This document shows positions 12,610 to 64,000 of a stretch of DNA of 64,000 nucleotides, in pieces. Where the stretch lies: assembly GCA_947564465.1 (NCBI GenBank), contig CANOCV010000010.1, positions 6,027-70,026 of the forward strand. Reading direction: 5' to 3'. The position numbers and the translations under genes were made by a program. Position 1 is the stretch's first letter. Each line of letters starts with the position of its first letter. This DNA comes from an uncultured Roseburia sp. (GTDB taxonomy: Bacteria; Bacillota; Clostridia; Lachnospirales; Lachnospiraceae). A model generated the notes under the pieces. It made no database searches and was not told the DNA's origin. It saw nothing but the letters and a program-made list of their open reading frames with translations.

Positions 12610-12637
12610 TTCAGTATTTTAATAATATACTGACTAT

Positions 12638-12709
12638 GGTTCATTGGTCAAGCGGTTAAGACGCCGCCCTCTCACGGCGGAAACAGGGGTTCGATTCCCC
12701 TATGAACTG
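12638..12709 (+). tRNA. tRNA-Glu (anticodon CUC), second copy
   Basis: Near-identical cloverleaf exactly 100 bp downstream of the first. Differences are paired changes in the acceptor and T stems. Confidence 0.9.
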
Positions 12710-28335: not shown

Positions 28336-28602
28336 TCCCAAAATGCCGTTTCCTGCAATTTTGACTCCTAGCAAAGCTAGGTGGGTAACCGCAACCAACA
28401 TTCTGCCTTCCGCTGCAAACGACGGCCTGACATCCTGCTGACAATGTAGGAATCCCATGAACGTAAATGTAGGTTCAAAATAGCAGGGTATCGAACACCC
28501 CAGGTAATTTACTAATTAGATTATACTCTATTATTCCACATATTTCAACGTAAAATTCACGTTACTATTTTATAATTTTTGCCGAGTTGGGCATTTTTTT
28601 CC

Positions 28603-47147: not shown

Positions 47148-47191
47148 TCAATCCCTTCTTCCTCAAATCAAATTCAAGCGGCTCATATCAA

Positions 47192-48757
47192 CTACTTAAT
47201 TTGTCTTTTATAGATTAAAAATTTTTTCAGTTTTTCCATCTTTATTACGTCCAAAAACCAATTGATCGAATCATTATATTCCTTTGAAAAACAAAAAAGC
47301 ATAATCCAGATCATATTAGGTAAGATGCAGCATATTACTGTCAAAATAAAAAATCCCATTATCCCATCCATTTGAATTATAGATGTCACCTTATAGGTAA
47401 TGCATGCGCTGAAAATAGTTGCCGCTAAATATTTAAAATTTTGAATATAAAAACTCTTTGATGAAATACCTTTAAAATAATATTTATAAACGATCTGTGT
47501 ACTCAAAACATAATTAAAAATAAGCAGCGAAATGATCGTAGCCGCTATAATTCCCATAACTCCAAAATATCTCGCAAGGATCCAATTAAGCGCTACATTT
47601 GCAACCGTCTCTCCGATCGCCCGATATCTTTGCTGCCAATATAGGCCGGCTCCCTGCAAATATATGATTCTTATATCACCCAGCTTCAGAACATAATAGT
47701 ATAGACAAAATAAAACAACTGTTTTTATATCAAAAAGATAGTCCTTCCCAACCCATAAAACCATAAACGGCTGTATCAAACAAAACAAACATGTAGTTGT
47801 CCAACTGCTCATCCACATGTACAAAAAATTGATTCTATTCATTTCTTTATGATTTTTTTCCACCGTCTCTGTCGCAATACTATTACCGATAATAGACGCA
47901 ATGGAACTAGGCATAATTGTCAGTATGGACGTCACCGCACTTATTATCATATAATAATTGCCGTACATCGCGGTCGCGACAAGACCAATATATGCGGATG
48001 TAAATACGCTATCCAGGGAATTTCTAGTAGTCTGGCATATTTTACTAACCGATAACCCAACAACATTATGGACGATCGCATTCCTCGTCTCTTTATCCAA
48101 CGAGCCCTTGCAGCAATAATCCGGATATCTTTTATCCACAACATATGACGTATAGAGGTTATTAATAAGTGTACAGACAGGTAAAACAATTAAATATAAA
48201 TAATAATTTTGTACTAAAACCAAAATAAGGATCTGGCTCACATTCAAAATAATTTTTACAGAAACATCTATTTTACTTATAATATCATTTCTCTGTAATG
48301 CCACTAGAATACTGTTTTTATACGCAAACAACCAATAGCTTATGGATGTATTTATTAGATATATAAAAAACAAAATGTGTATATTTATACCCTCCGGATA
48401 CGAATCCTTGATAAAATATTTTAAAAAGGGCATCAGAATAATTCCCACAACAAAAATCACACACCCTATGACTGCGTATATCTTTCGGAACGTATTTAAA
48501 ATTTCACATATTTTTTTCCTGTCGTTATCTGCTATCGGCTTATACATACTGTAAACAATCGCTTCACTGAACCCCAGTTCCGCTAAATTCAGCACTTGCA
48601 GAATTGCGCTAAACAGACTGTTTAAACCCAAATACCCTGCGCCTAACATCTGTATCATTACCGTACGCAAAACAAACGGAAACAGAATAGAAACAAATCT
48701 GTTTATCACTCCAAATGTTAAATTCCTTTTTGCATTTAAACTTCTTTCAAATTTCAT
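47192..48757 (-). CDS. Wzx-type polysaccharide/oligosaccharide flippase (MOP superfamily)
   Basis: About 520 aa with about 14 TM segments. N-terminus K.N..FG.IN...S.LFPF..R...I..LG..YLGLNSLF typical of Wzx. Start taken at the first ATG. Confidence 0.75.
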   Translation of the reverse strand: MKFERSLNAKRNLTFGVINRFVSILFPFVLRTVMIQMLGAGYLGLNSLFSAILQVLNLAELGFSEAIVYSMYKPIADNDRKKICEILNTFRKIYAVIGCVIFVVGIILMPFLKYFIKDSYPEGINIHILFFIYLINTSISYWLFAYKNSILVALQRNDIISKIDVSVKIILNVSQILILVLVQNYYLYLIVLPVCTLINNLYTSYVVDKRYPDYCCKGSLDKETRNAIVHNVVGLSVSKICQTTRNSLDSVFTSAYIGLVATAMYGNYYMIISAVTSILTIMPSSIASIIGNSIATETVEKNHKEMNRINFLYMWMSSWTTTCLFCLIQPFMVLWVGKDYLFDIKTVVLFCLYYYVLKLGDIRIIYLQGAGLYWQQRYRAIGETVANVALNWILARYFGVMGIIAATIISLLIFNYVLSTQIVYKYYFKGISSKSFYIQNFKYLAATIFSACITYKVTSIIQMDGIMGFFILTVICCILPNMIWIMLFCFSKEYNDSINWFLDVIKMEKLKKFLIYKRQIK

Positions 48758-48781
48758 GATCCCATTCACCAGATGCCATAT

Positions 48782-49963
48782 CTATTTTTCCAATTCTGTA
48801 CTATTCTTCATACTTCTAAACGAAAAACCCACCAAACACAAAAATATGATGTTAATCGGCTTCCCAAAAAAAGTAAATACATTTTCAAATAATTCAATGC
48901 CAACATAAATAATGGTCGTTACCAAAATAAAATAATTATTTACATTCGGATATTGCCGATAATTTTTGATGGAATGTATCAATATATAAATCATAAAAAT
49001 GATAAACATGATAAAAGGCAATATTCCGTACCGCAATAACCAATTAAAAAATTCACCGTTAGAGTTTAAAGAACTATCAGCATTTCCAATCCATGTCGCA
49101 TTCTGAAGTATATTTTTCCAAATATCGTCTCTTCCTGATAAGATATTAAACACACCCCATTTATGAAGGAAAAAATTCAATAGCATCTCATAATTGCTGA
49201 AAATCATATATAAAATAGCAACTAAAATTACAGACAATATTAAAAAATGCTTTTTTTTAAGTTTCCTGTTTTTAAATATAAAAATACCAAACTCATTGTG
49301 CAGATAAAAAATTAAAAACAATAAAATTGCAAGAACACAAAGCAGCGCTATTGTCCGTGACGAAGAAAGAGCCACAAATACCAAAGATATTCCCAGCAAA
49401 AGCAGGCTAATCCATTTCCAAAGTTTATTTTTACTAATCAGAAACAGATAACACGCGCCCAATATTCCCCCCATTAATGTCATTGCAAACTGATTGGAAT
49501 TAATATTTGTTCCCTGATAATACACAAATGTATTTATTCCAACCTGAAAAAAACATCGGTAAGCAAGATATGCATTGATTAGCACTGCTGCAATTGCTAA
49601 TTCAACAATTGACATGCTTCCGTTTTCTACGATAATAAAATAGAAAATAAACATCAATAAATGCCTTAAGATAATGTCGTAACTGATATTTCCTCCAATA
49701 ATTGCCGGTATAAAGCTAAGCAGCAAAAATAAATATATTACCGCGAATTGTAAGATTTCCCTCCTCAGTATTAACTTTTTTTGTGAGAGAAGAAATCCTG
49801 TCGCAAGCGAACAAATAATAATCACTCCCACTCCCAACGGATGTAAATATGAACTATACGATTTTCTTGCATCGCAGGGAATAATAAAAACGGCAAACAA
49901 TGCAATAATGTATATATACCTTACAAATTTTACTTTTAACTGTTTCACATTTATAGTGTTCAT
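48782..49963 (-). CDS. Wzy/O-antigen-ligase-like polysaccharide polymerase
   Basis: 393 aa, at least 10 TM segments, with a mid-protein loop (SSSRTIAL). Located between the glycosyltransferases and Wzx. Confidence 0.6.
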   Translation of the reverse strand: MNTINVKQLKVKFVRYIYIIALFAVFIIPCDARKSYSSYLHPLGVGVIIICSLATGFLLSQKKLILRREILQFAVIYLFLLLSFIPAIIGGNISYDIILRHLLMFIFYFIIVENGSMSIVELAIAAVLINAYLAYRCFFQVGINTFVYYQGTNINSNQFAMTLMGGILGACYLFLISKNKLWKWISLLLLGISLVFVALSSSRTIALLCVLAILLFLIFYLHNEFGIFIFKNRKLKKKHFLILSVILVAILYMIFSNYEMLLNFFLHKWGVFNILSGRDDIWKNILQNATWIGNADSSLNSNGEFFNWLLRYGILPFIMFIIFMIYILIHSIKNYRQYPNVNNYFILVTTIIYVGIELFENVFTFFGKPINIIFLCLVGFSFRSMKNSTELEK

Positions 49964-49964
49964 T

Positions 49965-51014
49965 TCACTTCCTCTTTTTACGATTTTTTTTCTGACGATA
50001 TTTTATAAATACCTCTAACAGATAAAAACATCTAAATTTTATCAGGACAAATTTTGTCCTCTCAATAATTCCGGTAAAATCATTCACATTTAAGACATGT
50101 ACGGCCTTTTTTATATTCAACTTTATATAATCCTCTTTTGCTTCTTTCCTGTTGATTTTTCTTTTATTCGGATTTTGAAAGTTAAAATAATCAAGATAAA
50201 GAATCTCAAAATACTGCAGATACCTTAACATGTACTTTATATGTTTACTGTCCAATCCCTCCCTGGAATTCTCCTTCAAAAATGTATCTACCGCGTTTAT
50301 AAACGCATATGCCCGAGATCTGGCCGTTGTACTGTATTTGTTACAAATTGATTCGAAATTTTGATAGTAAACATACGAATTCAGTTTTTTATATTTCACA
50401 GACTGTGTTCTGCAAAAAGCATAAACCATAAATGCTCTATCCTGGGACTTTCGCAAATTAGAATCAAATTTCAAATTATTATCGAATAAAAATTTTCTCC
50501 TGAATGCCTTTGCCCAGACCGCACCGGCAAAATAATCCGGATATTTTTTCCCGCAAAACAATGAATTTCTAATCAGTTCATTTACATCTGGCGGCTCTTC
50601 TTTATCACTGATTTGTACTCGTATCTTGTTCTCACGCGCATCCATCCTCGTATAATCAAATAAAATAATATCCTCATTTGAATCTTGCAGTTCTTCTATA
50701 CAAGTCCAAAAATCATCGTTTATAAAATCATCCGGATCTACAAACACAAGGTATTGTCCCTTACTTTTAACAATTCCGTAATTCCTCGCCACCGAGACGC
50801 CCTGATTGTCCTGATGATAAACGCTTATTCTGGGATCCATTTCAGAGAGCGCATCGCACTCTCCGCGAACTTCACGAGCAGAACCGTCGTCCACTAATAT
50901 AATTTCAATGTCTTTCCTCTTACATTTCAAAATACAATCCACACATCGTCTTAATAAATTAGTCGGTGTATTATATACCGGAATGATAAACGAGATAAGC
51001 ATTTCATATTCCAT
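49965..51014 (-). CDS. family 2 glycosyltransferase
   Basis: ISFIIPVYNTPTNLLRRCVDCIL....ILVDDGS....VFVDPDD (DxD). Start at MEYEM with GGAGGA RBS. Confidence 0.85.
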   Translation of the reverse strand: MEYEMLISFIIPVYNTPTNLLRRCVDCILKCKRKDIEIILVDDGSAREVRGECDALSEMDPRISVYHQDNQGVSVARNYGIVKSKGQYLVFVDPDDFINDDFWTCIEELQDSNEDIILFDYTRMDARENKIRVQISDKEEPPDVNELIRNSLFCGKKYPDYFAGAVWAKAFRRKFLFDNNLKFDSNLRKSQDRAFMVYAFCRTQSVKYKKLNSYVYYQNFESICNKYSTTARSRAYAFINAVDTFLKENSREGLDSKHIKYMLRYLQYFEILYLDYFNFQNPNKRKINRKEAKEDYIKLNIKKAVHVLNVNDFTGIIERTKFVLIKFRCFYLLEVFIKYRQKKNRKKRK

Positions 51015-51045
51015 CAAATTATCCTCCATACTATATTGTCCCAGG

Positions 51046-51972
51046 CTATATACGCTTAAAAAAACGGACGGCCGTCTTCTTCAAAAATTTTCCAAAATAT
51101 GACCTATATTCCGGACTCTTTATAGAAAAACGCACATAGTTCAATATTCGTATCAAGCTAAGCCATATCAAAAAAATTCTGGGCGATTTAAGATATTTTC
51201 TGCAATAATATATCTCAGATTCTACAAAAGCCGCATACGCCGCCGGCCTGTTGGCAGCCGTAGAGTATCCATGATGATGAATCACTGTATATTCCGGGAT
51301 AATATATGTATCATAGCCTTTCATTTCCATTTTGCAGGAAATAATATTTTCTTCTTCATACAAGAAGGTATTTTCATCAAAGCAGCCGATTTTTTTTACA
51401 CATTCACTGCGAAACATAAAACAGCATCCGGATACGCCAAACACTCGAAGCGGAAAAGTGTATTTATCAATATCTATATGAAAATTGTCGCAAAAACGCT
51501 TAGATGCGAAACCCAACGGTGTATTTCTTAAAATCCATAAATATTTCCCTGGCAAAGTCATCTTACAGCCAAGGTTCGTCTCCTGCGTCTTACCGCCCGG
51601 CAAAACAATTTTAGGCGCGGCGATACCGGCCTTATCGTTGTTTTCAAGAAACTCCGACAGCCCCGTAAGAACGTCACCGGTAAAGATAATGTCGTTATTG
51701 GCTATCAAAATATAATCACAATGATCCTTTAACGCTTCTTTTATTCCAATGTTATTTCCCGCGGAATATCCTCTGTTTTCTTTCGCTCTGAAATATGTTA
51801 TGTTCCCGTTTTCTTTTACTACTTTTTTTATTCCCTCAGTAGGCAGCGTTTCGGAATGATTGTCCACTAAATATATTTTGTATGACGTTTCGATAGGAGA
51901 AGATAAAATACTATTTACACACTTCTCCGTCACATCCCATGTATTGTATGTTAAAATTACGATACCTGTCAT
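51046..51972 (-). CDS. family 2 glycosyltransferase
   Basis: GIVILTYNTWDVTEKCVNSIL...YLVDNHS...GYSAGNNIG...IANNDI. Confidence 0.85.
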   Translation of the reverse strand: MTGIVILTYNTWDVTEKCVNSILSSPIETSYKIYLVDNHSETLPTEGIKKVVKENGNITYFRAKENRGYSAGNNIGIKEALKDHCDYILIANNDIIFTGDVLTGLSEFLENNDKAGIAAPKIVLPGGKTQETNLGCKMTLPGKYLWILRNTPLGFASKRFCDNFHIDIDKYTFPLRVFGVSGCCFMFRSECVKKIGCFDENTFLYEEENIISCKMEMKGYDTYIIPEYTVIHHHGYSTAANRPAAYAAFVESEIYYCRKYLKSPRIFLIWLSLIRILNYVRFSIKSPEYRSYFGKFLKKTAVRFFKRI

Positions 51973-51973
51973 A

Positions 51974-53149
51974 TCAGTTTTCCTTATCCATATACAAAGC
52001 CTTACTCCACGCTTCTATAATTTGTTTATTTGCAAATGTTGTTTCGGATAAACGAATTGAATTTCTCTGATACTCTATCAATGCTTTCTTATTTTCTAAT
52101 AAAAAACTGATTTTTTCAGACAGAAATTTTACAACACTGCCTTCAACATAATTGTTATATAAATGATTCTTTCTTTTTCGTTTTAACCTTGCATTTAAGG
52201 TATTATCCGCATTCCAATAACGCACTGGCGGCTCCAGCAAAAAACCATTGTAATCATTTTTTACAATTTCATTAATTGCATAGACGTCTGTGGCTAGAAA
52301 AGAACATCCATATTTCAATGCTTCCAGTAATGTTAATGGGAAGCTGTCCATTCTTGTCATATGAATCAAAATATTTGCTTTTTCATAAAAAGCATTCAAT
52401 TCATTCTTCGTAAATGTAAAATCATAAAGAGAAACATTCGATAATCCCCTTAATTTATCCAGAGTTTGCCTCTCCAAGGAGTCGAGTTTTGTAATAATAT
52501 CAAAATGGAGCTTCTTATTTTTATCCCACTCATTTTTCTCGATTGCATCGAGAAGCTCCCCTCCGCCTTTCAAATAAAACTGTGAAGATATATACAAGCA
52601 ATGAATAACAGAAGAATTTATTTTTTTTTCAAATTCTGTATTTGTAATCTCATCCTTCACATATGGATAGATCTGTTTTATTTCCAGTGATTTCGGAATA
52701 TTATAATATTTTGGAATGGTCTCAAAACAAGCCTTATTTAAGCACACAATAGATTTCAGGTTTGTATCTATAAACGAGCGTTTCAAATTCCTCTTACCTA
52801 ATATAGAACAGGCTCTCTTCGGCTGATAATGAACTAATGCAATCGGACTTTCCAACACCAGCACATACGGTCTGTTCGTTTTTAAAAATCTGTTATAGCT
52901 CAAAAATCCATCTGCAAAATCACTTTCTGTCCGCACACTCTGATAAACTCCTAAAACGTTCCAGATTTTCCATTGGCTTAAGTTCCACATTATACTTTTT
53001 GAATTTTGAGAGATGTTATCGTTTTGCCTCTTCTCTGAAATAATAAATTCAATATTTTTCACATCTGCATGAAACAAGCTATTCCAAAAACCTCTGTTTG
53101 CATGTACCGGAATGATTTTAACCGTTTTCTTTTTGGTGTCGTCTACCAT
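51974..53149 (-). CDS. family 4 (GT-B, Glycos_transf_1) glycosyltransferase
   Basis: C-terminal MDSFPLTLLEALKYGCSFLATDV resembles the E(x7)E GT4 motif. Confidence 0.7.
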   Translation of the reverse strand: MVDDTKKKTVKIIPVHANRGFWNSLFHADVKNIEFIISEKRQNDNISQNSKSIMWNLSQWKIWNVLGVYQSVRTESDFADGFLSYNRFLKTNRPYVLVLESPIALVHYQPKRACSILGKRNLKRSFIDTNLKSIVCLNKACFETIPKYYNIPKSLEIKQIYPYVKDEITNTEFEKKINSSVIHCLYISSQFYLKGGGELLDAIEKNEWDKNKKLHFDIITKLDSLERQTLDKLRGLSNVSLYDFTFTKNELNAFYEKANILIHMTRMDSFPLTLLEALKYGCSFLATDVYAINEIVKNDYNGFLLEPPVRYWNADNTLNARLKRKRKNHLYNNYVEGSVVKFLSEKISFLLENKKALIEYQRNSIRLSETTFANKQIIEAWSKALYMDKEN

Positions 53150-53150
53150 C

Positions 53151-54359
53151 CTAACGCTCCCCTTCTATCATTTCGAAAATTGTTTGATATGAAGTTTTTC
53201 TGTCAAACATTTCTTCTCCCATTCTTCTGTTGTTTTTTCCCATTTCCAGTCTCTTCTCCCTGTCAGTCACTAAATCCATGATTTGTTTCGCAAGCTCCCC
53301 CGCATTTCCATTTTCACAATTGATACCTGCATGATATCTACTCAGTAATTCTCTGTATTCCGGGCACTCCTGTGTACTGATTACCGGAAGGCCCGCCGCT
53401 GCATAATCGCCAACTTTATTTATAATGCTCTGCGCCGCCCCGTGCATAATCGGATTCACCGCTATATCACATTCCGTGAGACGTGTTATCATCTCTGTAT
53501 ACTCTAATCTTCCGGTATATTCCACATCCACGCCCAAGTATCTGCTGTACGCTTCAAATTTTTTGCGAAGCGGTCCGTCGCCTATCACACGGAAGCGTAT
53601 ATTATTTATTTTCTTTTCCTTCAGCGCTTTCAGCGCGTCAAATACAATCGTCAAATCGTAACTATGTCCAAGCGCCCCCACATATACCAGACGTACCACC
53701 GCGTCATTTTTACTTAACTTTTCTTTTGCCGCGTATTGGTCAAACACTGCCAATTCCGTACCTAAGTAAACAGCCAGTCCCTTTTCACATTTTTTACTTA
53801 CACTTAGCGCCCGATTCATGTAGGTTTCGGATACGGCCACAATCTTATCCGCGTTACGATATATATAATCAGCCCTTCTTTTCATAGGCGCAAACAACAG
53901 ATTGCTTAAAAGCGGAATATCAATTACCATCTGAAAAGCTTCCGGCCATAAATCCTGTATGTCAATGATAAGTTTTATCCCCTCTGTCCCTGCATACTTT
54001 GTTACTACACCTGCCACGTCTAACGACGGAACCGAACAATAGATGACATCAGGATGTTTCCTTATTTTTAGATACTGCCTCACGCGTTTGGCAAACCCCG
54101 CATGACTTATCAAACGCCCGACAGATACGTTTTTCCTGTAACCGGGTTCCTCAAGCATTGTCAATCTATATGGCAATTCCTCTATCTGCTCCTGCGATAT
54201 AATCCTTCGCTGTTTACGGCTATGCGAAAACGTACTTGTCACCACCTCAACTTTATTATTGTTATCCTGTGCCAGTCTACCGGCAAGGTAATGAAATCTT
54301 CCGTTTCCCTTCTCAAAAGGTGTCTGTGTAAAATGCGCCACCATCAATATATCTCTCAT
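53151..54359 (-). CDS. family 4 (GT-B) glycosyltransferase
   Basis: ILMVAHFTQTPFEKGNGRFHYLA N-terminus. RLVYVGALGHSYD..., NPIMHGAAQSIINKVGDYAAAGLPVIS C-terminal half. Confidence 0.7.
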   Translation of the reverse strand: MRDILMVAHFTQTPFEKGNGRFHYLAGRLAQDNNNKVEVVTSTFSHSRKQRRIISQEQIEELPYRLTMLEEPGYRKNVSVGRLISHAGFAKRVRQYLKIRKHPDVIYCSVPSLDVAGVVTKYAGTEGIKLIIDIQDLWPEAFQMVIDIPLLSNLLFAPMKRRADYIYRNADKIVAVSETYMNRALSVSKKCEKGLAVYLGTELAVFDQYAAKEKLSKNDAVVRLVYVGALGHSYDLTIVFDALKALKEKKINNIRFRVIGDGPLRKKFEAYSRYLGVDVEYTGRLEYTEMITRLTECDIAVNPIMHGAAQSIINKVGDYAAAGLPVISTQECPEYRELLSRYHAGINCENGNAGELAKQIMDLVTDREKRLEMGKNNRRMGEEMFDRKTSYQTIFEMIEGER

Positions 54360-54381
54360 GAAACTGTATACTCCTTACATA

Positions 54382-55362
54382 TTACTGCCTGTACGCCGGA
54401 AAATATCCCTTGCTGTCCGGCTCGACGCCTCCCTTAATGCAAAGCTTTTCATAAATATCCCGATTCCACACCTTACGCCCTATGTAAAAATCAAATTCTG
54501 TATTTTGTCCGAACTGCTTTTTAAATGTATACAGACTATCCTCTAAATCACCGGAACGTCCCCCTCCATGATGAATCAGGCTATATCCTTTTTCCTTCCC
54601 CCACAGAGTCACCGCATATCTCAAAACATACGCCGGGGATAAATGCAGATATTCGCTGAGCGTGCCCGAAAGATGTATATGAATTACATTTTCCCATGCA
54701 AAGTAAAAGCCGGCAGCAATCACCTTCCCCTCATACAACGCTTCCACTAATATGATGTTGTCCCTAAAATACTTCAGACACCGTTCAAAATAATCATCCG
54801 AAAAATAATAATACTCACCTGCCCCGTTTCTTCTCATAGTGGAATAATATACTTCTTTGAAACCTGATATATCATCCGGCCTCTCTGTGATGCGATAAGT
54901 GATGCCATCTCTGATTGCCCGACGGATTCTCTTTCTGCAGCTTTTGGAAAATTCTTCCGAAACCGGATCCTCATAAGCATCAAGATTCGTCCCTACCGTT
55001 TTTCTGTCAAGTTTCGCATCATAAACCTTCTGAAAATCTACGCCGTTCCCAACAATCGGATGAAAACGAATAAACTCACTGACAATATTATGTTCTCTAC
55101 AATACTCTGCAAACTCTCTCTCATAAGCGTCTAACAACGCGTCTTTTTTTCCCGGCTCACACTCTGCAATCACCGGTCCTCCATATCCATATGGGGAAAC
55201 AATGTCATAATATTGTTCGCCATTGATTTTTGTATGGATTGCACGCAATATAAACATATGATTCACAATTCCATAAGCTGTGCCGATTTTCTTGCAAATC
55301 GCTTTTCCATCCTCTATCGGTTCATTGACAATCCCATACTCTTTCTGAAAATATATATCCAT
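54382..55362 (-). CDS. FemAB/GNAT-fold acyl- or aminoacyl-transferase-like protein
   Basis: About 325 aa. MDIYFQKEYG...YDIVSPYGYGGP...EF.KS.RK.I..A resembles FemX-like 'peptidoglycan bridge formation' proteins seen in polysaccharide loci. Assignment by pattern only. Start at the internal ATG with GGAGA RBS. Confidence 0.45.
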   Translation of the reverse strand: MDIYFQKEYGIVNEPIEDGKAICKKIGTAYGIVNHMFILRAIHTKINGEQYYDIVSPYGYGGPVIAECEPGKKDALLDAYEREFAEYCREHNIVSEFIRFHPIVGNGVDFQKVYDAKLDRKTVGTNLDAYEDPVSEEFSKSCRKRIRRAIRDGITYRITERPDDISGFKEVYYSTMRRNGAGEYYYFSDDYFERCLKYFRDNIILVEALYEGKVIAAGFYFAWENVIHIHLSGTLSEYLHLSPAYVLRYAVTLWGKEKGYSLIHHGGGRSGDLEDSLYTFKKQFGQNTEFDFYIGRKVWNRDIYEKLCIKGGVEPDSKGYFPAYRQ

Positions 55363-55399
55363 CAAACCGTCTCCATACATACGATAAATGACTGCTGTC

Positions 55400-56155
55400 T
55401 CATTCTTCGGAAATAATATGCTTCACAACATCCTGCATCAGATAAGCGCCTTTTTTGTTTTCAATGTATTCAGCCGCAAGAAGCGCCCCATTCGCAAATG
55501 CCATCCTTGAAAACGATTCATGCTCAATTGTTATCTTTTCGTAACCATTAGACGCAGTTACCTCATGTACTCCAACGTAACCATTCAATCGAACCGAATG
55601 TATAGGTACATCCTCCTTATCAATCGCCTGTGAAATCATACGGGCAGTAGTCGTAACCGGAGCCTTATCCTTTGGATGACGCTCTATAATTTCAAAATCA
55701 AAGTCGGGAAAAACCTTTGATAAGCGTTTCACAAAATCCATCAAAAGATTAATTCCGACTGTCAGGTTCGGTGCGTATACAACTCCTATATTTAACTTTT
55801 CCGAAAGATCCTGAAATTTGCTAATTTCCTCAATGGAATGATTTGTGGTACAGATCACCAGATTAGCTTTCAGATTTCCACACAATTCAATCAAAGGAAA
55901 CGCCATATCGCGATGGGAAAAATCAATGACGACATCTATGTCGTAAGCATTTTGGCTGTCCAAAATTTTTTCAGGCGACGTAATTACAATTCCGACCGTT
56001 CTTCCTTTCCCATACAAAATTTCCCCAATATCCATTCCCTGTTTTGTACTGGTGCTTCTGCATATGACTGTCTGTAATGTGTGCGCATTATGATCCAAAA
56101 TATTTTTTGCCAATGCCTGTGCCGCTCTTCCAAATCCACAAATTGCAAGCTTCAT
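55400..56155 (-). CDS. DapB-like NAD(P)-dependent oxidoreductase
   Basis: MKLAICGFGRAAQ Rossmann start. ERHPKDKAPVTTTAR resembles the DapB E.HH..K.DAPSGTA motif. AGGAGGAAA RBS. Confidence 0.5.
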   Translation of the reverse strand: MKLAICGFGRAAQALAKNILDHNAHTLQTVICRSTSTKQGMDIGEILYGKGRTVGIVITSPEKILDSQNAYDIDVVIDFSHRDMAFPLIELCGNLKANLVICTTNHSIEEISKFQDLSEKLNIGVVYAPNLTVGINLLMDFVKRLSKVFPDFDFEIIERHPKDKAPVTTTARMISQAIDKEDVPIHSVRLNGYVGVHEVTASNGYEKITIEHESFSRMAFANGALLAAEYIENKKGAYLMQDVVKHIISEE

Positions 56156-56187
56156 TTCTTTCCTCCTAATTTCATAAATTCATCTCT

Positions 56188-57441
56188 TTAAAATATGAGA
56201 CTATTTACTGACATCAACATTTCTTTGCCATCACAATCTACAACACTCAGCTCTTTATAAATCTCTTCAATGGCCGCCTTCAGTTCCGCATCTCTTCTCT
56301 CTTTCAGGTAGATTCTTGCTAAATCCTTTCCCTTATTTACAGTGTCTCCTACCCATGACGTTTGAATAATATTCACAACATCTGCTCTGGACTCTATCTT
56401 CTCCAGTCCCTTTATAGACGTTATCACTCCACCATTCAGCAATATAGACAGTACCCCTCCGACGCCGTCAAACTTCGGATTGCATACTTCTTTTATTGCC
56501 CGATCTCCCATATGTCCTGTCAGTTGAAAATCAATCAAGTATTCCAATGGGCTATATCCACAAAAAGCCTCTGTAATCTCCGCAAAAGTCCCTCCCATTC
56601 TATAACCCATTTCGCAAATATAAAATTGATTATCCTGATAAAATGCCTGAACAAATATTACTCCATTATTAAATTTTTCGGATTCGAACATTCCGCATAA
56701 TTGTTCTGCAACCTTCTTGGCACAAGCCAGGTGCTCCGATGGGTATTTGAGAAGATTAGCATGATTGATGGGCGTATTTTTTCGATCTTCCGTTACTATT
56801 TTATCTGCCATAGCCGAGAGCATTACCGTTCCGTCTTGTGCAATAAAGTCAAACAAAACATCTGCTCCCGTCATATATTTTTCGATTACAATTTTTTTCT
56901 GTTTCGAATACTTTAACGCCTCTGAAAACGCATTTTTCATCTCCTCCTCATTAAAGCAGATGGTCACTCCCCTTGAGCCACTGCCGTCCACAGGTTTTAT
57001 GACTGCCGGGTACTCGATATTCCTCAAAGCATCCTCATCCGGCATGTTTCCATAGTAATACTCCGGTATTACCTGTATAGAATGCTTTTCGCACATCTGC
57101 TTAAATAATCTTTTATCGGTAGATATTTTTATCTGCTCTTCGGTTCCATAAAAAGGAATGCATGCTTTTTTGCATATTTTTTGCGCCAAAACGGCATTAT
57201 CATCATTAAAACCCGAAATCAGACCATCCGCTCCCGTCCGATATATCAATGCCACCATTTCATCAATATCTGTAACGCTTGTCATAAATGACTCGTCTGC
57301 CAATTTTTTAGCGGGAGAATCACTATAATAATCCGCAACCATTGTATAGACATGATTCTTTTTTGCTACTCTGACTATGTTTGAACTATGCGCGTCTCCC
57401 CTCATAACAAGTAATTTTTTCCCCTTTATTTCATCGATCAT
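56188..57441 (-). CDS. ATP-grasp domain ligase
   Basis: KKLLVMRG...(pre-ATP-grasp), YPAVIKPVDGSGSRGV, IVIEKYM, ICEMGYRMGG. Start at MIDEIKG with AAAGGTGGGG RBS. Confidence 0.75.
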   Translation of the reverse strand: MIDEIKGKKLLVMRGDAHSSNIVRVAKKNHVYTMVADYYSDSPAKKLADESFMTSVTDIDEMVALIYRTGADGLISGFNDDNAVLAQKICKKACIPFYGTEEQIKISTDKRLFKQMCEKHSIQVIPEYYYGNMPDEDALRNIEYPAVIKPVDGSGSRGVTICFNEEEMKNAFSEALKYSKQKKIVIEKYMTGADVLFDFIAQDGTVMLSAMADKIVTEDRKNTPINHANLLKYPSEHLACAKKVAEQLCGMFESEKFNNGVIFVQAFYQDNQFYICEMGYRMGGTFAEITEAFCGYSPLEYLIDFQLTGHMGDRAIKEVCNPKFDGVGGVLSILLNGGVITSIKGLEKIESRADVVNIIQTSWVGDTVNKGKDLARIYLKERRDAELKAAIEEIYKELSVVDCDGKEMLMSVNSLIF

Positions 57442-57485
57442 ATCATTTACCCCACCCTTTACCGTCATATTTTTCTCTGCCTGTA

Positions 57486-58565
57486 CTATGAGATACAATT
57501 TAGAACTTCACAGATATATCGCATTTCTTCCCGCCCATAGCGTTGATCGCATGGAATACACAATATATGACCGTATATGTACCTGCCCGCATCGCTAATA
57601 TTCTGAATGTGTTCATATTTCGGCCAAACTACCGGACAATAAATCTTCTTTTCCGCCAACCTCTCCTGTATGCTTTTCCTTTGGTTCTCCTGTATGATAT
57701 AAATTGGAAAATAAAGCGGTGTTTCATCGTCATTTAATTCTCCCATAACGGGCTTGAAGAAATTGCTCTTTTTTAAATGTCCATACAGATATACATAATT
57801 CCTTTTTCTTGCATTTGTAACAAAATCATAATCTACATGACGCAAAATGCGCTCTGTCGCATCATTGATCCGATAAACATCATCATATTTTATGAACTTG
57901 CTTTTCAGCTTTGAAAAGCTATCCGTAAATTCTTTTTTAGAGACTGTAATTTCACTGTTGATGTAAGCCTTTTTTAATTGAAATGCCCTGTCTGCCAATT
58001 CAATCATTTCCGCAACCGGCGGTCTGCCTGGAACTGTAATTGGAACGCGCGTGGAAAGCAAAACCCCCCCTTCCGGAACGGCAAAAAATTTTCTGAGACT
58101 TGCAACATAAAAGTCTGCGCCTGTCTTTTTAAAGCTCGAAAGAATGCACTGTGTCAAATCCTCAATGACAATAATCTTATTCTGACGGCAATACTCAATG
58201 ATGCTCTCCTTATCACGTAGAGTATTAAATCCAAAATAACTCTGAATATAAAATACTTCCGGCAACGTTTCTGATATTTTTTTCAATATAGCAGAGCTGT
58301 CAATTTCCAGATTTTTTTCTACCGGATAATAAAAAATCTGCCAACCTTCCTTTTCAAACGGAATGACAACCGTCTCACATGTAAATTCCGGGAGCAGCGC
58401 GCGCTTTACTCTCCCATGATTCATTTTTAAAAAAGAGCGAATTGCACTTCTGCCGGAAATATAAAATTTACTGTCAACCGGTTCCATAAGACCGGCAATT
58501 TCAAATTTCCGCTCCTCCCCGGACATAGGATAATCCCAAAAATCACTCCCTATTTCCCGCAGCAT
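57486..58565 (-). CDS. DegT/DnrJ/EryC1-like PLP-dependent enzyme
   Basis: YVASLRKFFAVPEGGVL fits the S..K....GEGG Schiff-base region. About 360 aa. AAGGAG RBS. Confidence 0.55.
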   Translation of the reverse strand: MLREIGSDFWDYPMSGEERKFEIAGLMEPVDSKFYISGRSAIRSFLKMNHGRVKRALLPEFTCETVVIPFEKEGWQIFYYPVEKNLEIDSSAILKKISETLPEVFYIQSYFGFNTLRDKESIIEYCRQNKIIVIEDLTQCILSSFKKTGADFYVASLRKFFAVPEGGVLLSTRVPITVPGRPPVAEMIELADRAFQLKKAYINSEITVSKKEFTDSFSKLKSKFIKYDDVYRINDATERILRHVDYDFVTNARKRNYVYLYGHLKKSNFFKPVMGELNDDETPLYFPIYIIQENQRKSIQERLAEKKIYCPVVWPKYEHIQNISDAGRYIYGHILCIPCDQRYGREEMRYICEVLNCIS

Positions 58566-59211
58566 TCAGTTCATTCTCCTTTAACTGGCAAATTCGATAT
58601 GTATGAAAATCCCCCTGACTTCCCGGTTCCACAATATCCGTCTTTGCAAATACCTTTTTTATCGTCAGACAAATAATTTTAATATCCAGCTTCAACGAAA
58701 TATGTTTTATATATTCAATATCATATTCCAGCCTCTTATCCCAATTTAGAGCCGTTCTTCCATTTACCTGCGCTAACCCTGTTAACCCCGGCAACACATC
58801 ATGTCTGTGTTTTTCCGCATCGCTGTAATATGGCAGATATGCAATTGCAAGCGGCCTGGGTCCCACGATAGACATATCGCCCCTGATAATGTTTATCAAT
58901 TCCGGCAATTCATCCAAGCTTGTCGCTCTAAGCTTTCTGCCAAATGATGTAAGACGTTTTTCATCGGGCAGCATTTTTCCATTTTCATCCTTTGCATTAC
59001 TCATAGACCTGAACTTATACATATCAAATATTTTTTCATCTTTTCCCGGCCTTTGCTGCCTAAAAAGCACCGGGCTGCCAAGCTTAATCCGAACCAAAAT
59101 GGCTGTTATCAGCATGACCGGGCTAAGAACAACAAGCGCTGTCAGAGCAAGCACAAAATCAAGACACCGCTTTATGTATTTTTTATAGATTTCCTTTTTG
59201 TGTTTCTGCAT
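58543..59211 (-). CDS. small monotopic polyprenyl-phosphate sugar-phosphate transferase (PglC/WbaP C-terminal type), initiating enzyme
   Basis: SPVLFRQQRPGKDEKIFDMYKFRSM....DELPELINIIRGDMSIVGPRP. First ATG used. Confidence 0.88.
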   Translation of the reverse strand: MQKHKKEIYKKYIKRCLDFVLALTALVVLSPVMLITAILVRIKLGSPVLFRQQRPGKDEKIFDMYKFRSMSNAKDENGKMLPDEKRLTSFGRKLRATSLDELPELINIIRGDMSIVGPRPLAIAYLPYYSDAEKHRHDVLPGLTGLAQVNGRTALNWDKRLEYDIEYIKHISLKLDIKIICLTIKKVFAKTDIVEPGSQGDFHTYRICQLKENELNAAGNRE

Positions 59212-59213
59212 TC

Positions 59214-60386
59214 TCAAATCACCAACCCAAAGCAACTCTTTATCATCTCAATCACAACATCCTGTGTGTCCTCTGTCATTTTAATATCGCTCGGCAGACA
59301 TAAGCCTCTTGCAAACAGATCCGCCCCCACATCTTCGCCTTCTTCCGCCGTGACAAATTTTCTGTCCTCATACACAGGCTGCATATGCATCGGCTTCCAG
59401 ATCGGCCTGGACTCCACATTATACTCCTCAAGCTTCTCCCGAATCATATCCGGGGTCACTCTTTTCCATTCGACACTCTTTCCCTCTGACACTTCCCTAT
59501 CAATAAGTAAACAGCTCAGCCAGAAATTTGGCTCTGTGTCTATAAGATATGGGTTCATGCTGATTGGAAGATTTTTCAATCCTTCTTTATAACGCATATA
59601 AATATCTTTTTTGCGCTTTTTATGTTCATCAAGATGAATAAGCTGTCCCCTTCCAATTCCCGCCACTATATTGCTCATTCGATAGTTATAGCCAATCTCT
59701 TTATGCTGATACCACGGAAAACTTTCTTTCGCCTGTGTCGCCCAAAAACGCGCTTTATCAGCGCCCTCTTTGTCATCCGTCAGAAGCGCTCCTCCGCCGC
59801 TGCATGTAATAATTTTGTTCCCATTAAAACTAATGATATTGTATTTTCCAAATGTCCCGGTCTGTTTTCCCCGAAACGTCGCTCCCAGTGATTCGGCGGC
59901 ATCTTCAATCAGCACTGCATGATACTTCTCACAAATTTCTTTAATTTCATCCAATTTTGCCGGTGTTCCATAAAGATTTGCCACAATCACTGCCTTTGTG
60001 TCAGGATACATAGAAAATGCCTTCTCTAAAGCAACCGGATCCATATTCCATGTATCACGTTCACTGTCAATAAATATTTGTTCTCCATTTTCATAAGAAA
60101 CAGGATTTACTGTGGCCGCAAATGTCACATCCGAGCACATGACTTTATCGCCCCGTCCGACTCCCGCCAGCTTTACCGCCAAATGAATCGCCTCTGTTCC
60201 TGCCCCAAGCGCCACAACTTCTTTGCACCCTACATACTCTCCGATTCCTTTTTCTAGCTGATCTAAGTTTTCTCCGATTGTAGATACCCAGTTTGTATCA
60301 AAAGCATTCTTCACAAAAAACTGCTCATCTTCATGCATTGTCGGCGATGAAAGCCAAACTCTGCTTTCAAACCTTTCAAATTCCAT
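59214..60386 (-). CDS. DegT/PglE-type sugar aminotransferase
   Basis: WLSSPTMHEDEQFFVKNAFDTNWVS, ...ISFNGNKIITCSGGGALL (PLP Lys), RGLCLPS. Start at MEFERF (the upstream ORF extension runs past the stop of the preceding zinc-ribbon gene at 60488 and has no RBS). Confidence 0.85.
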   Translation of the reverse strand: MEFERFESRVWLSSPTMHEDEQFFVKNAFDTNWVSTIGENLDQLEKGIGEYVGCKEVVALGAGTEAIHLAVKLAGVGRGDKVMCSDVTFAATVNPVSYENGEQIFIDSERDTWNMDPVALEKAFSMYPDTKAVIVANLYGTPAKLDEIKEICEKYHAVLIEDAAESLGATFRGKQTGTFGKYNIISFNGNKIITCSGGGALLTDDKEGADKARFWATQAKESFPWYQHKEIGYNYRMSNIVAGIGRGQLIHLDEHKKRKKDIYMRYKEGLKNLPISMNPYLIDTEPNFWLSCLLIDREVSEGKSVEWKRVTPDMIREKLEEYNVESRPIWKPMHMQPVYEDRKFVTAEEGEDVGADLFARGLCLPSDIKMTEDTQDVVIEMIKSCFGLVI

Positions 60387-60487
60387 GCCTCTTATCCTTT
60401 CCATTATCCGCACCGTTAACGGCAGTGTGAATTTAAATGTAGTATTACAGTTTATATCAAACTCTTTTGTAAAAATATGAATTTTAT

Positions 60488-61153
60488 CTATACACCGTTT
60501 TTTACCCTTTTCACATTCCCGGCACAAACGGGGCACCCCGAACGCTTCTTGGATGTTCTTGAAAATACCGCCGCCTGCCAAACGTGCCCTTCCTCACACT
60601 GCCACCAGATACGTTTTCCGCTTCCCGGCCGTATATGCCTGGGAGACAACTCATTGTTCAGTCCCGGATGCCACTGCTTCGCCACCTCCGGATACATCGT
60701 TTCAAGATCATTAAAACCCGGCCATGCCTTTTTTCCGCTGCAATACGGACATGCCTGCCCCCGCAGCGAACGATTTTCCACTGTGGCCTGCCACTCATGT
60801 CCCAAAGCACATTGCCACCAAATTTTTCTGTCACTCCCCGCCGTAACATCAGAGGGCTGTAATTCTCCGTTTTTAGCCGGATGCCACTCTTTTGCCACCC
60901 TCGGATTGACTGTTTTTAAATCGTTAAACCCACTCAGCGCTTTTTTGTTCGCACAATAAGGACAGCCGCGCCCCCGCAGCATACGATCCTTCACCGTACT
61001 TTGCCATATATGTCCTTTTTGGCACATCCACCAAACTTTTTTGTGGGACGCATAGCTGATGTCCTCTATTTTTTCGCTTCGGTTTCTCTCCAAGTCCCAT
61101 TCGGCGATTAAATATTCCATATGATTTGTCTCACAATACTCAACGGCGTTCAT
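60488..61153 (-). CDS. protein made of three tandem treble-clef zinc-ribbon repeats (DUF4379-like)
   Basis: Three repeats of about 58 aa: EW...N.....P..(S)..K.WW.C..GH.W...V..R.....CP.C.....(GFNDL). Start probably at MNAVEY (GAGGGA RBS). Confidence 0.65.
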   Translation of the reverse strand: MNAVEYCETNHMEYLIAEWDLERNRSEKIEDISYASHKKVWWMCQKGHIWQSTVKDRMLRGRGCPYCANKKALSGFNDLKTVNPRVAKEWHPAKNGELQPSDVTAGSDRKIWWQCALGHEWQATVENRSLRGQACPYCSGKKAWPGFNDLETMYPEVAKQWHPGLNNELSPRHIRPGSGKRIWWQCEEGHVWQAAVFSRTSKKRSGCPVCAGNVKRVKNGV

Positions 61154-61173
61154 AACTATTCCCTCATCATACA

Positions 61174-61195
61174 CAATAGTTTTTCTATTGCGAAC
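61174..61195. repeat. left inverted repeat / candidate recombinase core site
   Basis: CAATAG-TTTTT-CTATTGCGAAC is the exact reverse complement of 62793-62814 (22/22). Confidence 0.9.
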
Positions 61196-61232
61196 TTTTT
61201 GTCTGTAAATATTCTTATTTTAAACAACTGTA

Positions 61233-61261
61233 ATGGTATCACTACTTCAATTAAAAGTCAA
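61233..61261 (-). promoter_or_regulatory. candidate promoter inside the cassette reading into the polysaccharide operon
   Basis: Minus strand reads TTGACT (61256-61261), a 17-nt spacer, then TACCAT (61233-61238). Confidence 0.35.
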
Positions 61262-61343
61262 CTTTTCAGAATAATTTTCAACAATTTCCCAAAATCTTTG
61301 TTGCTATTCGGTCACTTATATAGTATTGAGTGATTTGACGGAC

Positions 61344-61524
61344 GCCATTTTGCATCCAAACTTCATTTTATAGACGAGGATAACGCGCCGCCGGACTAAC
61401 CGCTAACATTGACTAAAGGTCTCTCAGGAAAGCCTTCGAGACCAAGTCAAAGTAGGCGGTGGATTCCGCCTCTGCTAAGAACATCCTCTCATTGTCTTTA
61501 AAATGAAGTTGGATGCGGGATGGC
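61344..61524 (+). ncRNA. 181-nt highly structured element (6S-RNA-like architecture, or a recombinase-associated RNA); identity unproven
   Basis: Closing helix of about 35 bp (61344-61381 with 61483-61524, small bulges). Apical hairpin TTGACT-AAA-GGTCTC..AGG-AAAG-CCT..GAGACC-A-AGTCAA (61409-61450). 3'-side hairpin AGGCGG-TGGATT-CCGCCT (61454-61471). Plus-strand promoter TTGTTG-N17-TAGTAT ends at 61328. Confidence 0.4.
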
Positions 61525-61625
61525 TGTATCTCAAAACATGCCATTTAAAGCACGGTATTCGTGGTCAAAAAAATGGTAGATAATTGATTAGAAGTTATAC
61601 CAAAAATGAAGAGGAGGAAACAGAA

Positions 61626-62729
61626 ATGCCAAGAAAGGGCGAAAATATCAGAAAGCGAAAAGACGGAAGATGGGAGGCACGCTATTTTAAAGGACGGGAT
61701 GAACATGGACGCATTCGTTACGGATATGTTTATGCAAAGACATATCGACAAGTACGCGAAAAGAAAACACATATGATTCAGCAGATGGTCAAAAAAGATG
61801 TTTGCATCCCTATTGAATCGGAGATCAATACGATTGAATGTTTAAGCCAGATATGGATGAGGGATAAGAAAGAACGGGTTAAGCCAAGTACATACGCAAA
61901 TTATGAATCAATTATCATGAAGCATATTGAGGGTGTATTCGAGAAGAATCTGAAACAAATTACGAAAAAGGATATCTATTCGTTTGTCGAATCTCTGGCA
62001 AAGAAGGAGCTGCAGGCATCGACAATACGCTCAATCACAGATGTTCTCCGCTATATTTTAAGAAAAGGCAGCCAGATGGGAATAATCGAAAATGAGATTG
62101 CGGAGTGCTGCATCTACCGTAGCGGTAGAAATACTGTCCGCGTTTGCAGCGGGGACGACAGAGAAAAAATTGAGCAGATTCTCTTTTCAATTGATAATCT
62201 GTTTGCTACGGGGATTTTGTTGATGCTTTCCACAGGGATCCGTGTCGGGGAGTTATGCGGTATTCGCTGGGAAGATATCAATTTTGAAGAAAAAACCTTT
62301 CGTATCATTAGAACAATCCAGCGCATAAAAAATGATGGAAATGAGAGGGAAAAGGGAAAAACTTATATTCATATCGGAATACCCAAAACAGAAACATCTT
62401 TACGTGCTATTCCGATACCAACAAAGCTGTATTCTTTATTGCAAAAGTATAAGAGCCTTCCTTCACATTATCTTCTGACAGGGAGTTCTTCCTGCATGGA
62501 GCCGCGAAATGTGCAAAAGCGTTTTGAGACAATTCTTCGTCGAAATCAAATAACACATTATAACCTGCATTCGCTCCGTCACGGATTTGCTTCGACAGCC
62601 ATTGAAAAAGGCATTGACTGTAAAACGGTATCGTCTATTTTAGGGCATTCATCCACAAAGATTACACTGGATTTGTATGTGCACAGCAGTCGAAAAATGA
62701 TGCAGGATTGTGTCGATGCTATACTTTAA
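61626..62729 (+). CDS. tyrosine site-specific recombinase/integrase with N-terminal AP2-like arm-binding domain
   Basis: MPRKGENIRKRKDGRWEARYFKGRDEHGRIRYGYVYAKTYRQV N-terminus. Catalytic region TGIRVGELCGIRWEDI (Arg), HSLRHGFAS (H-x-x-R), LGHSSTKITLDLYVH (His, Tyr). GAGGAGGAAA RBS. Confidence 0.9.
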   Translation: MPRKGENIRKRKDGRWEARYFKGRDEHGRIRYGYVYAKTYRQVREKKTHMIQQMVKKDVCIPIESEINTIECLSQIWMRDKKERVKPSTYANYESIIMKHIEGVFEKNLKQITKKDIYSFVESLAKKELQASTIRSITDVLRYILRKGSQMGIIENEIAECCIYRSGRNTVRVCSGDDREKIEQILFSIDNLFATGILLMLSTGIRVGELCGIRWEDINFEEKTFRIIRTIQRIKNDGNEREKGKTYIHIGIPKTETSLRAIPIPTKLYSLLQKYKSLPSHYLLTGSSSCMEPRNVQKRFETILRRNQITHYNLHSLRHGFASTAIEKGIDCKTVSSILGHSSTKITLDLYVHSSRKMMQDCVDAIL

Positions 62730-62792
62730 TAAATAGTCAGAAGAAGTGGTCATTTGCCAAAACATACTTGCGTTTGTATTTATTTTTCCATT

Positions 62793-62819
62793 GTTCGCAA
62801 TAGAAAAACTATTGCGAAC
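62793..62819. repeat. right inverted repeat: full palindromic core-type site, also a terminator hairpin for the integrase gene
   Basis: GTTCGCAATAG-AAAAA-CTATTGCGAAC followed by TTTCTTTT. Confidence 0.9.
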
Positions 62820-62861
62820 TTTCTTTTATAAAATATATATGCGTCAAGCATTCTCAAACAC

Positions 62862-62906
62862 GAAAAATCCCGAAGAATTCCTGTTGAAACAGAATCCTTC
62901 GGGACT
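62862..62906 (-). terminator. intrinsic terminator of ilvC
   Basis: Minus strand reads TCCCGAAGGATTC-TGTTTCAACAG-GAATTCTTCGGGA followed by TTTTTCG. Confidence 0.85.
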
Positions 62907-62931
62907 GTTTAACTACTATTATTTTGAATCA

Positions 62932-62988
62932 GGCATCAGGGCTCCCCCCGCTTCGCGGGTCCCTCCTCATGCCAATTCTCCTCATGCC
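62932..62988. repeat. family A structured element, diverged single copy plus a partial duplication
   Basis: GGCATCAGGGCTCC-CCCCGCTTCGCGGG-TCCCTCCTCATGCC shares its flanks with the 19192-19380 units but has a different inner stem. An extra AATTCTCCTCATGCC half-copy follows. Confidence 0.8.
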
Positions 62989-62994
62989 ATTAGA

Positions 62995-64000
<1,006 letters not shown>

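Follow-up and report, generated by a model that had tools for sequence, protein, structure and literature searches.

We consider here a 64-kb stretch of DNA from an uncultured Roseburia sp. (contig CANOCV010000010.1), which was analysed at its full length and is called the window in the following, and in particular the 1.6-kb region that separates an operon for surface glycan synthesis from ilvC. This region holds one tyrosine recombinase gene and is bracketed by a perfect inverted repeat. Based on the arguments given below, we put a probability of roughly 0.85 on the reading that positions 61185-62803, approximately, form a promoter cassette that can invert, carries the gene of its own recombinase and controls the glycan operon. 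The features of the locus are as follows.

Sites, recombinase and flanking genes at the locus

61169-61195: left core site, with outer arm ATACACAATAG, spacer TTTTT and inner arm CTATTGCGAAC
61233-61261, minus strand: predicted outward promoter, called Pout here, with -35 box TTGACT (61261-61256), N17, an extended TG and -10 box TACCAT (61238-61233)
61344-61524, plus strand: hairpin element of 181 nt, folding at -91.3 kcal/mol (z = -8.9)
61562-61567 and 61574-61579, plus strand: TGGTCA and a degenerate TGGTAG, spaced by 12 nt and preceding the recombinase start by 64 nt
61626-62729, plus strand: tyrosine recombinase gene, 367 amino acids, stop codon at 62727-62729; PF00589 (E = 6.3e-25) and PF14659
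62747-62752, plus strand: second TGGTCA, 20 nt past the recombinase stop and about 40 nt before the right site
62793-62829, plus strand: right core site, GTTCGCAATAG-AAAAA-CTATTGCGAAC (62793-62819), followed by the T-run of the flank, TTTCTTTTAT
45909-61153, minus strand: target operon of about 15.2 kb for surface glycan synthesis, from open reading frame lists and Pfam
60488-61153, minus strand: first operon gene, DUF4379 (Pfam E = 1.6e-61), with three treble-clef zinc-finger repeats
62863-62909, minus strand: hairpin terminator of ilvC, located between the cassette and ilvC; an inverted repeat that a T-run follows on the minus strand
62995-64000, minus strand: ilvC, encoding ketol-acid reductoisomerase, on the non-target side; truncated by the window end and convergent with the recombinase gene

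The bracketing repeat is exact, with 61174-61195 (CAATAGTTTTTCTATTGCGAAC) being the reverse complement of 62793-62814 over 22/22 nt. Even when up to 3 mismatches are allowed, the window contains only these 2 matches, where shuffled sequences lead to an expectation of 0.01, and 2 matches were reached in 0/100 shuffles. The right copy belongs to a perfect 11-5-11 palindrome (62793-62819). In the left site the inner arm is complete and the outer arm ATACACAATAG is degenerate, matching at 8/11 positions, so that the left site spans 61169-61195. The half-site consensus of the core sites is GTTCGCAATAG. On the plus strand the spacer reads T5 at the left and A5 at the right, giving the two sites an inverted relative orientation. 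It is noted that the exact 22-bp repeat, the fully palindromic right copy, the spacers pointing in opposite ways and a 1.6-kb interior holding a 181-nt element and a single tyrosine recombinase gene had all been described in a first-pass annotation of this DNA, and that each of these descriptions stands, with no further match to the repeat in the window.

The recombinase open reading frame is intact and retains all the catalytic residues (R206, K254, H315, R318, H341 and Y351), which are invariant in 59 family members. Its AlphaFold2 model (mean pLDDT 83) has three domains, consisting of a three-strand sheet plus a helix (residues 8-58), which a low-confidence linker joins to a SAM-like core-binding domain and a catalytic domain. 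The top Foldseek matches are full-length lambda Int (360-379 columns aligned) and Tn1549 Int (TM-scores of 0.6-0.7), the sequence identities being only 17-22%. As modelled, the recombinase is thus an enzyme of the lambda/Tn916-like integrase type, having three domains with a putative arm-binding domain at the N-terminus. A serine invertase of the Hin/Gin kind was also considered and was rejected, because as to recombinase class the protein matches PF00589 only and the structural matches are tyrosine recombinases.

Short directional repeats are found near the gene. In the Lachnospiraceae loci that carry the motif, TGGTCA lies on the recombinase strand in 40/40 occurrences. One position precedes the ATG by about 40-65 nt, and the other is either about 16-35 nt past the stop codon or some 50 nt short of the far repeat; tandem pairs with a period of 12-13 nt are frequent. 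CCGTCA takes its place in the Ruminococcus subfamily, at -32 and +20, with 47/52 occurrences on the strand of the gene. The flanking of the gene by these repeats on its own strand fits an arm-binding domain, and from their sequence and placement the TGGTCA/CCGTCA repeats are probably arm-type sites for the N-terminal domain of the recombinase, for which we consider them candidates. The motifs at 61562-61579, which are candidates for an accessory binding role as well, could possibly also overlap the recombinase promoter.

Inversion and site structure in related cassettes

The recombinase of the window is a singleton in the protein collection. Its nearest relative, P0002, comes from an uncultured Roseburia metagenome-assembled genome (MAG), with 80% identity in the recombinase and about 81% identity in DNA, and it is present on 22 contigs, on which DUF4379 and ilvC flank the cassette as they do in the window and the arms of the sites are shared with the window as well. 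Two orientations of the P0002 cassette occur. In state A, which is also that of the window, the recombinase gene points against its two neighbours (L001, L003 and L005-L009), while in state B it is co-directional with both of them (L002, L004 and L010), with about 12 contigs in state A and 3 in state B. Comparison of L001 with L002 gives 100% identity over 5250 bp of the operon flank, 1617 bp of the cassette and 2453 bp of the ilvC flank, only the orientation of the cassette being different. The junctions in the two states read as follows.

State A, operon-side junction: catgATTCGCAATAG-TTTTT-CTATTGCGAACC
State A, ilvC-side junction: tcATACGCAATAG-AAAAA-CTATTGCGAACCTTTTTcaatt
State B, ilvC-side junction: aaaaagGTTCGCAATAG-TTTTT-CTATTGCGAACC
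State B, operon-side junction: tcATACGCAATAG-AAAAA-CTATTGCGAATcatgaagg

These junctions are those of a reciprocal exchange of half-sites, where the outer halves stay with the flank and the inner halves stay with the cassette. Since the differences in the outer arms keep to their own side, the crossover is confined to CGCAATAG-N5-CTATTGCG.

Inversion is also seen beyond this lineage. In Blautia P0022, L103 and L104 have 100% identical flanks with the cassette flipped at a 26-nt repeat, and in P0033, L137 and L140 have 100% identical flanks with the cassette flipped at a 17-nt repeat. Moreover, orthologous loci of different species are found in opposite orientations (L014/L017, L043/L046 and L051/L054). 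The flipped contigs span both junctions and come from different assemblies (with records named NODE_, k141_ and Logan); since the repeats of 17-27 nt are far shorter than the k = 141 that the k141 record names imply, and the junctions are spanned, misassembly is not credible as the cause. The first-pass annotation had predicted inversion from the opposed spacers and had proposed that related genomes be compared for the two orientations. Both orientations are indeed found, with L001 and L002 having identical flanks, and the predicted inversion is seen in P0002, P0022 and P0033, from which we infer it for the window.

The scan of species-representative genomes returned 80 loci, and the family counts given here are taken over 81 distinct loci. 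A bracketing inverted repeat, required to be perfect, at least 14 nt long and no more than 700 bp away from the recombinase gene at either end, is present in 53/81 loci, and the cassette sizes are 1.4-2.3 kb. Every subfamily site reads arm-spacer-arm, as in the following examples.

Blautia: GTCGCTTAT-N7-ATAAGCGAC
Acetatifactor: GGTTCGTCTTA-N7-TAAGACGAACC
Clade labelled Bacilli: GAATAAAGT-T6-ACTTTATTC

Each recombinase subfamily is consistently paired with its own site sequence, and this pairing makes the encoded recombinase the putative catalyst of the inversion. In L011, from an uncultured Lachnospiraceae MAG, the recombinase is 52% identical to that of the window and the perfect 22-nt repeat reads CAATAG-AAAGC-CTATTGCGAAC. 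The same arms are thus present with another 5-nt spacer, which is the expected signature of a tyrosine-recombinase core site. The arm layout of the lox/FRT/dif type that had been proposed for the window therefore holds, with all the subfamily sites built in this way and with the arms kept in the 52% identical relative. One candidate, P0062, was rejected as an active cassette and is probably degenerate, as it has no bracketing repeat and no variation in orientation.

Promoter, polarity and alternative explanations

In the orientation of the window, Pout points across the left site into the operon. For this minus-strand promoter the sequence given before, TTGACT-N17-TACCAT, is confirmed, to which an extended TG can be added; its position is conserved in the family and its function is predicted. 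L001 has Pout in conserved form, and at an equal distance L011 has TTGACT-17-TATGAT. In 52/53 cassettes there is an outward promoter, encoded on the other strand than the recombinase gene and lying mostly 36-63 nt (in a few cases as much as about 180 nt) inside the repeat proximal to that gene. This promoter is often near consensus, with TTGACA-17-TATCAT plus TG in Blautia and TTTAC(T/A)-16-TATAAT plus TG in Ruminococcus, and it is the best-conserved non-coding feature of the family.

The gene that Pout would first reach is DUF4379. It has GAGGGA as its ribosome-binding site, and its start codon, ATG 61153, is separated from the left site by 15 nt. This ATG had already been taken as the likely start of the first operon gene, and the orthologue in L001 begins at the equivalent ATG. 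The 15.2-kb operon is a surface glycan locus. Besides DUF4379, it encodes a DegT aminotransferase, a Bac_transf initiating sugar transferase, an aminotransferase-like protein, an ATP-grasp protein, a DapB-like protein, a FemAB-like protein, two GT1 and two GT2 glycosyltransferases, two proteins with no Pfam match and a UDP-glucose dehydrogenase. Note also that the internal DNA repeats of DUF4379 (60664-61015, with 213-nt spacing and about 70% identity) correspond to its three zinc-finger repeats.

Based on these features, the switch is proposed to work as follows. The recombinase would bind the four half-sites of the two core sites, with their opposed asymmetric 5-nt spacers, and strand exchange within the spacer region would invert the cassette, where the TGGTCA repeats may help to assemble the synapse or may autoregulate the recombinase gene. 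The state in the window is predicted to be ON, with Pout reading over the left site into DUF4379 and the 15-kb glycan operon, while the recombinase transcript would stop at the right site and the T-run of its flank. In the direction of Pout, the left site forms only a weak hairpin, and the sequence after it, GAUGAGGGAAUAG, has the ribosome-binding site in it but lacks a U-run; the right site together with TTTCTTTTAT is scored as an intrinsic terminator on the plus strand by the terminator scan. The flipped state is predicted to be OFF or low, with Pout facing the ilvC-side flank, where its transcripts would terminate, and with the recombinase gene being co-directional with the operon and lying 66 nt upstream with no terminator in between, from which only weak read-through would be expected. 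It is this path of Pout without a T-run, together with the terminator at the right site, that leads us to take ON as the state of the window and OFF or low as that of the flipped cassette. That after inversion the promoter would face a hairpin plus T-run, as was pointed out before, follows from the sequence, and the operon-side flank has no T-run. Of the two flanks, the non-target one is the richer in T in 17/19 single-target loci of Lachnospiraceae, a subset picked once the data had been seen. The ON/OFF switch for polysaccharide with its own recombinase, which was the overall proposal of the first-pass annotation, is thus supported by the two orientations of P0002, by the arm layout and by the family-wide promoter.

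Several points weigh against this reading. Of the organism of the window one contig in one orientation is known, and with the recombinase being a singleton the flipping in the window is deduced from a species that is about 81% identical in DNA. The outer-left arm of the window matches at 8/11 positions, against 9/11 for the least well matching arm that is functional in the relative. The N-terminal domain of the recombinase (residues 1-71) has no Pfam match and no PDB sequence match. Promoter-like matches in the region are not enriched, with 9 against 5.7 +/- 2.6 in shuffles, and as Pout is a match to consensus, its weight rests on the conservation throughout the family. The rule that a terminator lies on the non-target flank is specific to some lineages and is not significant over all 46 loci (Wilcoxon p = 0.30). 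Finally, OFF could be leaky, or the polarity even reversed, if transcription of the recombinase gene continues into the operon in the flipped state.

An alternative that we consider improbable is that the cassette is a once-active switch that no longer flips here, its outer-left arm having decayed, so that Pout drives the operon constitutively. This would be in line with the 8/11 match of that arm and with the single orientation on the one contig known for the organism. However, the recombinase with all its catalytic residues is intact and the 22-nt repeat is perfect. Moreover, the active relative P0002 works with arms that match at 9/11 and 10/11 positions, its weak arm ATACGCAATAG being one base different from that of the window.

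It is likewise unlikely, in our estimate, that the polarity is reversed or graded, with the flipped state being ON through co-transcription with the recombinase gene and with Pout being weak or having another use, e.g., antisense control. The distance of 66-104 nt from the stop of the flipped recombinase gene to the start of DUF4379, with no T-run terminator between them, would allow this, and in the reference loci of Ruminococcus/Oscillospiraceae the recombinase gene is co-directional with a LytTR target in about 22/23 cases. This alternative is at odds with the outward promoter being so well conserved and often near consensus, whereas no convincing conserved promoter of comparable kind was found for the recombinase gene across the cassettes. 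It is also at odds with the promoter facing the target in about 12/15 P0002 contigs and in most of the P0022 and P0033 contigs.

By contrast, there is very little to be said for the proposal, also raised in the first-pass annotation, that the cassette is the remnant of a minimal integrative element, with CTATTGCGAACTTT as attL/attR, so that any rearrangement would be excision or integration rather than inversion. The 14-nt direct match CTATTGCGAACTTT is real, the enzyme is integrase-like (lambda Int and Tn1549 Int), and related cassettes adjoin unrelated genes in different lineages. Nevertheless, the direct match arises automatically because the sites consist of inverted, palindromic arms, and the asymmetric spacers are inverted rather than direct. 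Furthermore, the same flanks are found with the cassette in both orientations, the polymorphism being inversion only, and no empty site is seen, the same locus being shared by two species that are about 81% identical in DNA.

Still less probable, to the point of being negligible, is that the repeats are mere terminator or repetitive extragenic palindromic (REP)-like hairpins and the opposite orientations are assembly artefacts: although the right site scores as a terminator and several contigs break in the cassette at the long hairpin, the site has only its 2 copies in the window, the pattern CAATAG-N5-CTATTGCGAAC has 27 matches in metagenome contigs that are all single copies with no partner site and no recombinase beside any of them, as chance predicts, the scan of viral contigs found none, and the flipped contigs from different assemblies span both junctions with repeats much shorter than k. 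A dispersed terminator or REP-like repeat, the case that had been named beforehand as speaking against a switch, is therefore rejected for the window as well as in the metagenome and viral scans.

The counterpart of the 181-nt hairpin in L001 folds at -115.6 kcal/mol (z = -15.5), and the hairpin core is 92.6% identical between the window and P0002, against 81% for the whole region. Its outer stem is heavily diverged yet still paired, with nine pairs changed on both sides, and three further pairs are U.G in the window, which pair only on the plus strand. By BLAST against all fetched loci the hairpin is found only in the window and P0002 lineages; nothing was found for its core in scans of the metagenome and viral collections, and neither the hairpin nor the sites match any Rfam family, whether gathering thresholds are applied or E is allowed up to 10, apart from weak matches to eukaryotic small nucleolar RNAs that are dismissed as chance. 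The gap before the recombinase start is about 160-265 bp in most other cassettes and 430 bp in the window. As other cassettes carry no such hairpin, it is dispensable for inversion, and our best guess, made with low confidence, is that it is a leader RNA of the recombinase. Contigs of the P0002 lineage (L003, L006, L008, L010 and L012) often begin inside or just past the hairpin; most likely the assembly was broken there by the long palindrome, so that this is not biology.

On the other side of the cassette, the orthologous ilvC flank in L001 and L002 carries KARI_N plus KARI_C. Between the ilvC stop and the terminator (62963-62989) there are two copies of a perfect 12-nt direct repeat, CTCCTCATGCCA, at a distance of 15 nt, and L001 has one related copy. 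Elsewhere in the window there are a T-box leader, a 6S RNA and two tRNAs (24590-24816, minus strand; 28331-28509, minus strand; 12538-12709, plus strand).

Targets of the family and comparison with known switches

The target, i.e., the gene that the promoter faces now or after a flip, is different in different lineages. In 23 Ruminococcus/Oscillospiraceae loci (L044-L090) it is a LytTR response regulator, for example at L056:6302-7015 on the plus strand, and the promoter facing away from it in about 22/23 reference loci suggests a phase-variable LytTR regulator with OFF as the default. In 18 loci of the Blautia group (Blautia, Coprococcus and Bariatricus) the target is a TnpB/Cas12f-like protein of about 400 amino acids (PF07282), located in three of them as follows.

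L017:3454-4719, minus strand: TnpB-like target
L020:3492-4691, minus strand: TnpB-like target
L102:3481-4692, minus strand: TnpB-like target
15 other loci: TnpB-like targets

In L020 there is Phe in place of the RuvC-III Asp and the RuvC-I motif, too, seems to be lost, which makes it probable that this protein is nuclease-dead. In L102 the TnpB-like gene is followed by a gap of about 600 nt, which has only a 39-amino-acid open reading frame, and then by polysaccharide genes; the TnpB-like target could be a phase-variable RNA-guided regulator of capsule genes. A CapD-like polysaccharide gene is the target in P0033, other targets are a Listeria-Bacteroides-repeat surface protein and a sortase, and in L011 and P0094 the cassette lies between two divergent polysaccharide operons. 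With targets varying by lineage in this way, the cassette type is a general switch, of which the window is a member that controls polysaccharide.

In L011 the repeats are at 5601-5622 and 7487-7508 and both divergent operons start with an epimerase, so flipping could toggle between the two polysaccharide operons. A second outward promoter-like site, TTGACT-17-TAATAT, at about 7437-7465 at the far end, would complicate a simple toggle. In P0094 (L143-L152; e.g., 2277-2297 and 4531-4551 in L144) the cassette is 2.27 kb long and 99.9-100% identical, and its flanks are interchangeable, each being 100% identical between contigs, in the combinations LA+RB, LA+RA, LB+RA and LB+RC, with no flank ever found on the opposite side. 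P0094 is either a multi-site system or a case of between-strain exchange with the cassette as an anchor. As a tentative idea, to which we give rather low odds, the cassette could be a portable switch module derived from an integrase, composed of core sites, outward promoter, arm-type sites and recombinase, which can be placed before any gene and perhaps chooses between operons as in P0094, with the hairpin possibly being a cis-acting RNA that sets the switching rate.

In the literature searched, the coverage of which is incomplete, no description of this cassette family was found, and it is apparently a large, undescribed family of switches with self-encoded recombinase in gut Clostridia. Phase variation of surface glycans has been well worked out in Bacteroides and hardly in gut Clostridia (Lachnospiraceae, Ruminococcus and relatives). 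The switch is recognisable by sequence, through the bracketing arm-spacer-arm repeat, the outward promoter and the internal gene for an integrase-type recombinase. The invertons listed in survey papers are about 200-650 bp, and PhaseFinder reportedly limits the distance between repeats to about 750 bp; if this is true, cassettes of 1.4-2.3 kb would be missed systematically. In addition, by tying phase variation to regulators (LytTR and TnpB-like), the family implies phase-variable regulons, and a compact one-gene switch is a possible tool for engineering Firmicutes.

We now compare the cassette with known systems. Hin, which drives flagellar phase variation in Salmonella, is a serine recombinase that acts at hix sites with a Fis-bound enhancer. 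The H segment resembles the present cassette in having the recombinase gene and an outward promoter inside the invertible segment and a target operon adjacent to it, and PMC5903667 cites Hin as an example of a recombinase within the invertible segment. By contrast, the window has a tyrosine recombinase of the integrase type, sites built as arm-spacer-arm and a glycan operon for its target. By analogy, the cassette is in its logic a tyrosine-recombinase counterpart of the Hin segment.

FimB-type enzymes are small and have no arm-binding domain. Both fimS (FimB/FimE) and the switch of the Salmonella T1 polysaccharide, with the FimB-like STM0716, turn a surface structure ON or OFF by tyrosine-recombinase promoter inversion, with a size of about 270-314 bp, 9-bp repeats and the recombinase gene outside (PMC11294581), unlike the window, which has a 1.6-kb switch with the recombinase gene inside and a three-domain enzyme. 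The capsule promoters of Bacteroides (Mpi and Tsr) and C. difficile RecV are similar in that invertible promoters control the surface structures of gut anaerobes. Mpi and RecV each serve several sites at other places in the genome, whereas here each cassette has its own enzyme. In Clostridia, the "inverton group 139" has been linked to a nearby tyrosine recombinase, the examples having about 230-260 bp between the repeats and the recombinase being only "nearby", within 5 kb (PMC11892184). Among the cases compared, the known tyrosine-recombinase promoter switches are thus about 230-314 bp long with the recombinase adjacent or nearby, not inside as it is here.

In the type I restriction-modification hsdS locus of S. 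pneumoniae the PsrA/CreX gene lies between the inverting hsdS segments. This locus shuffles coding segments of specificity genes and not a promoter, which is different from the window; the similarity is that its inversions are programmed ones made by a tyrosine recombinase (PMC4948785 and PMC11709252). Finally, lambda Int and the Tn916/Tn1549 integrases, which are heterobivalent tyrosine recombinases, resemble the recombinase as modelled here in the layout of N-terminal sheet plus helix, core-binding domain and catalytic domain, and the cassettes have short directional repeats near the core sites as candidate arm-type sites. These integrases integrate and excise mobile DNA, whereas in the present cassettes the sites are inverted and the outcome observed is inversion.

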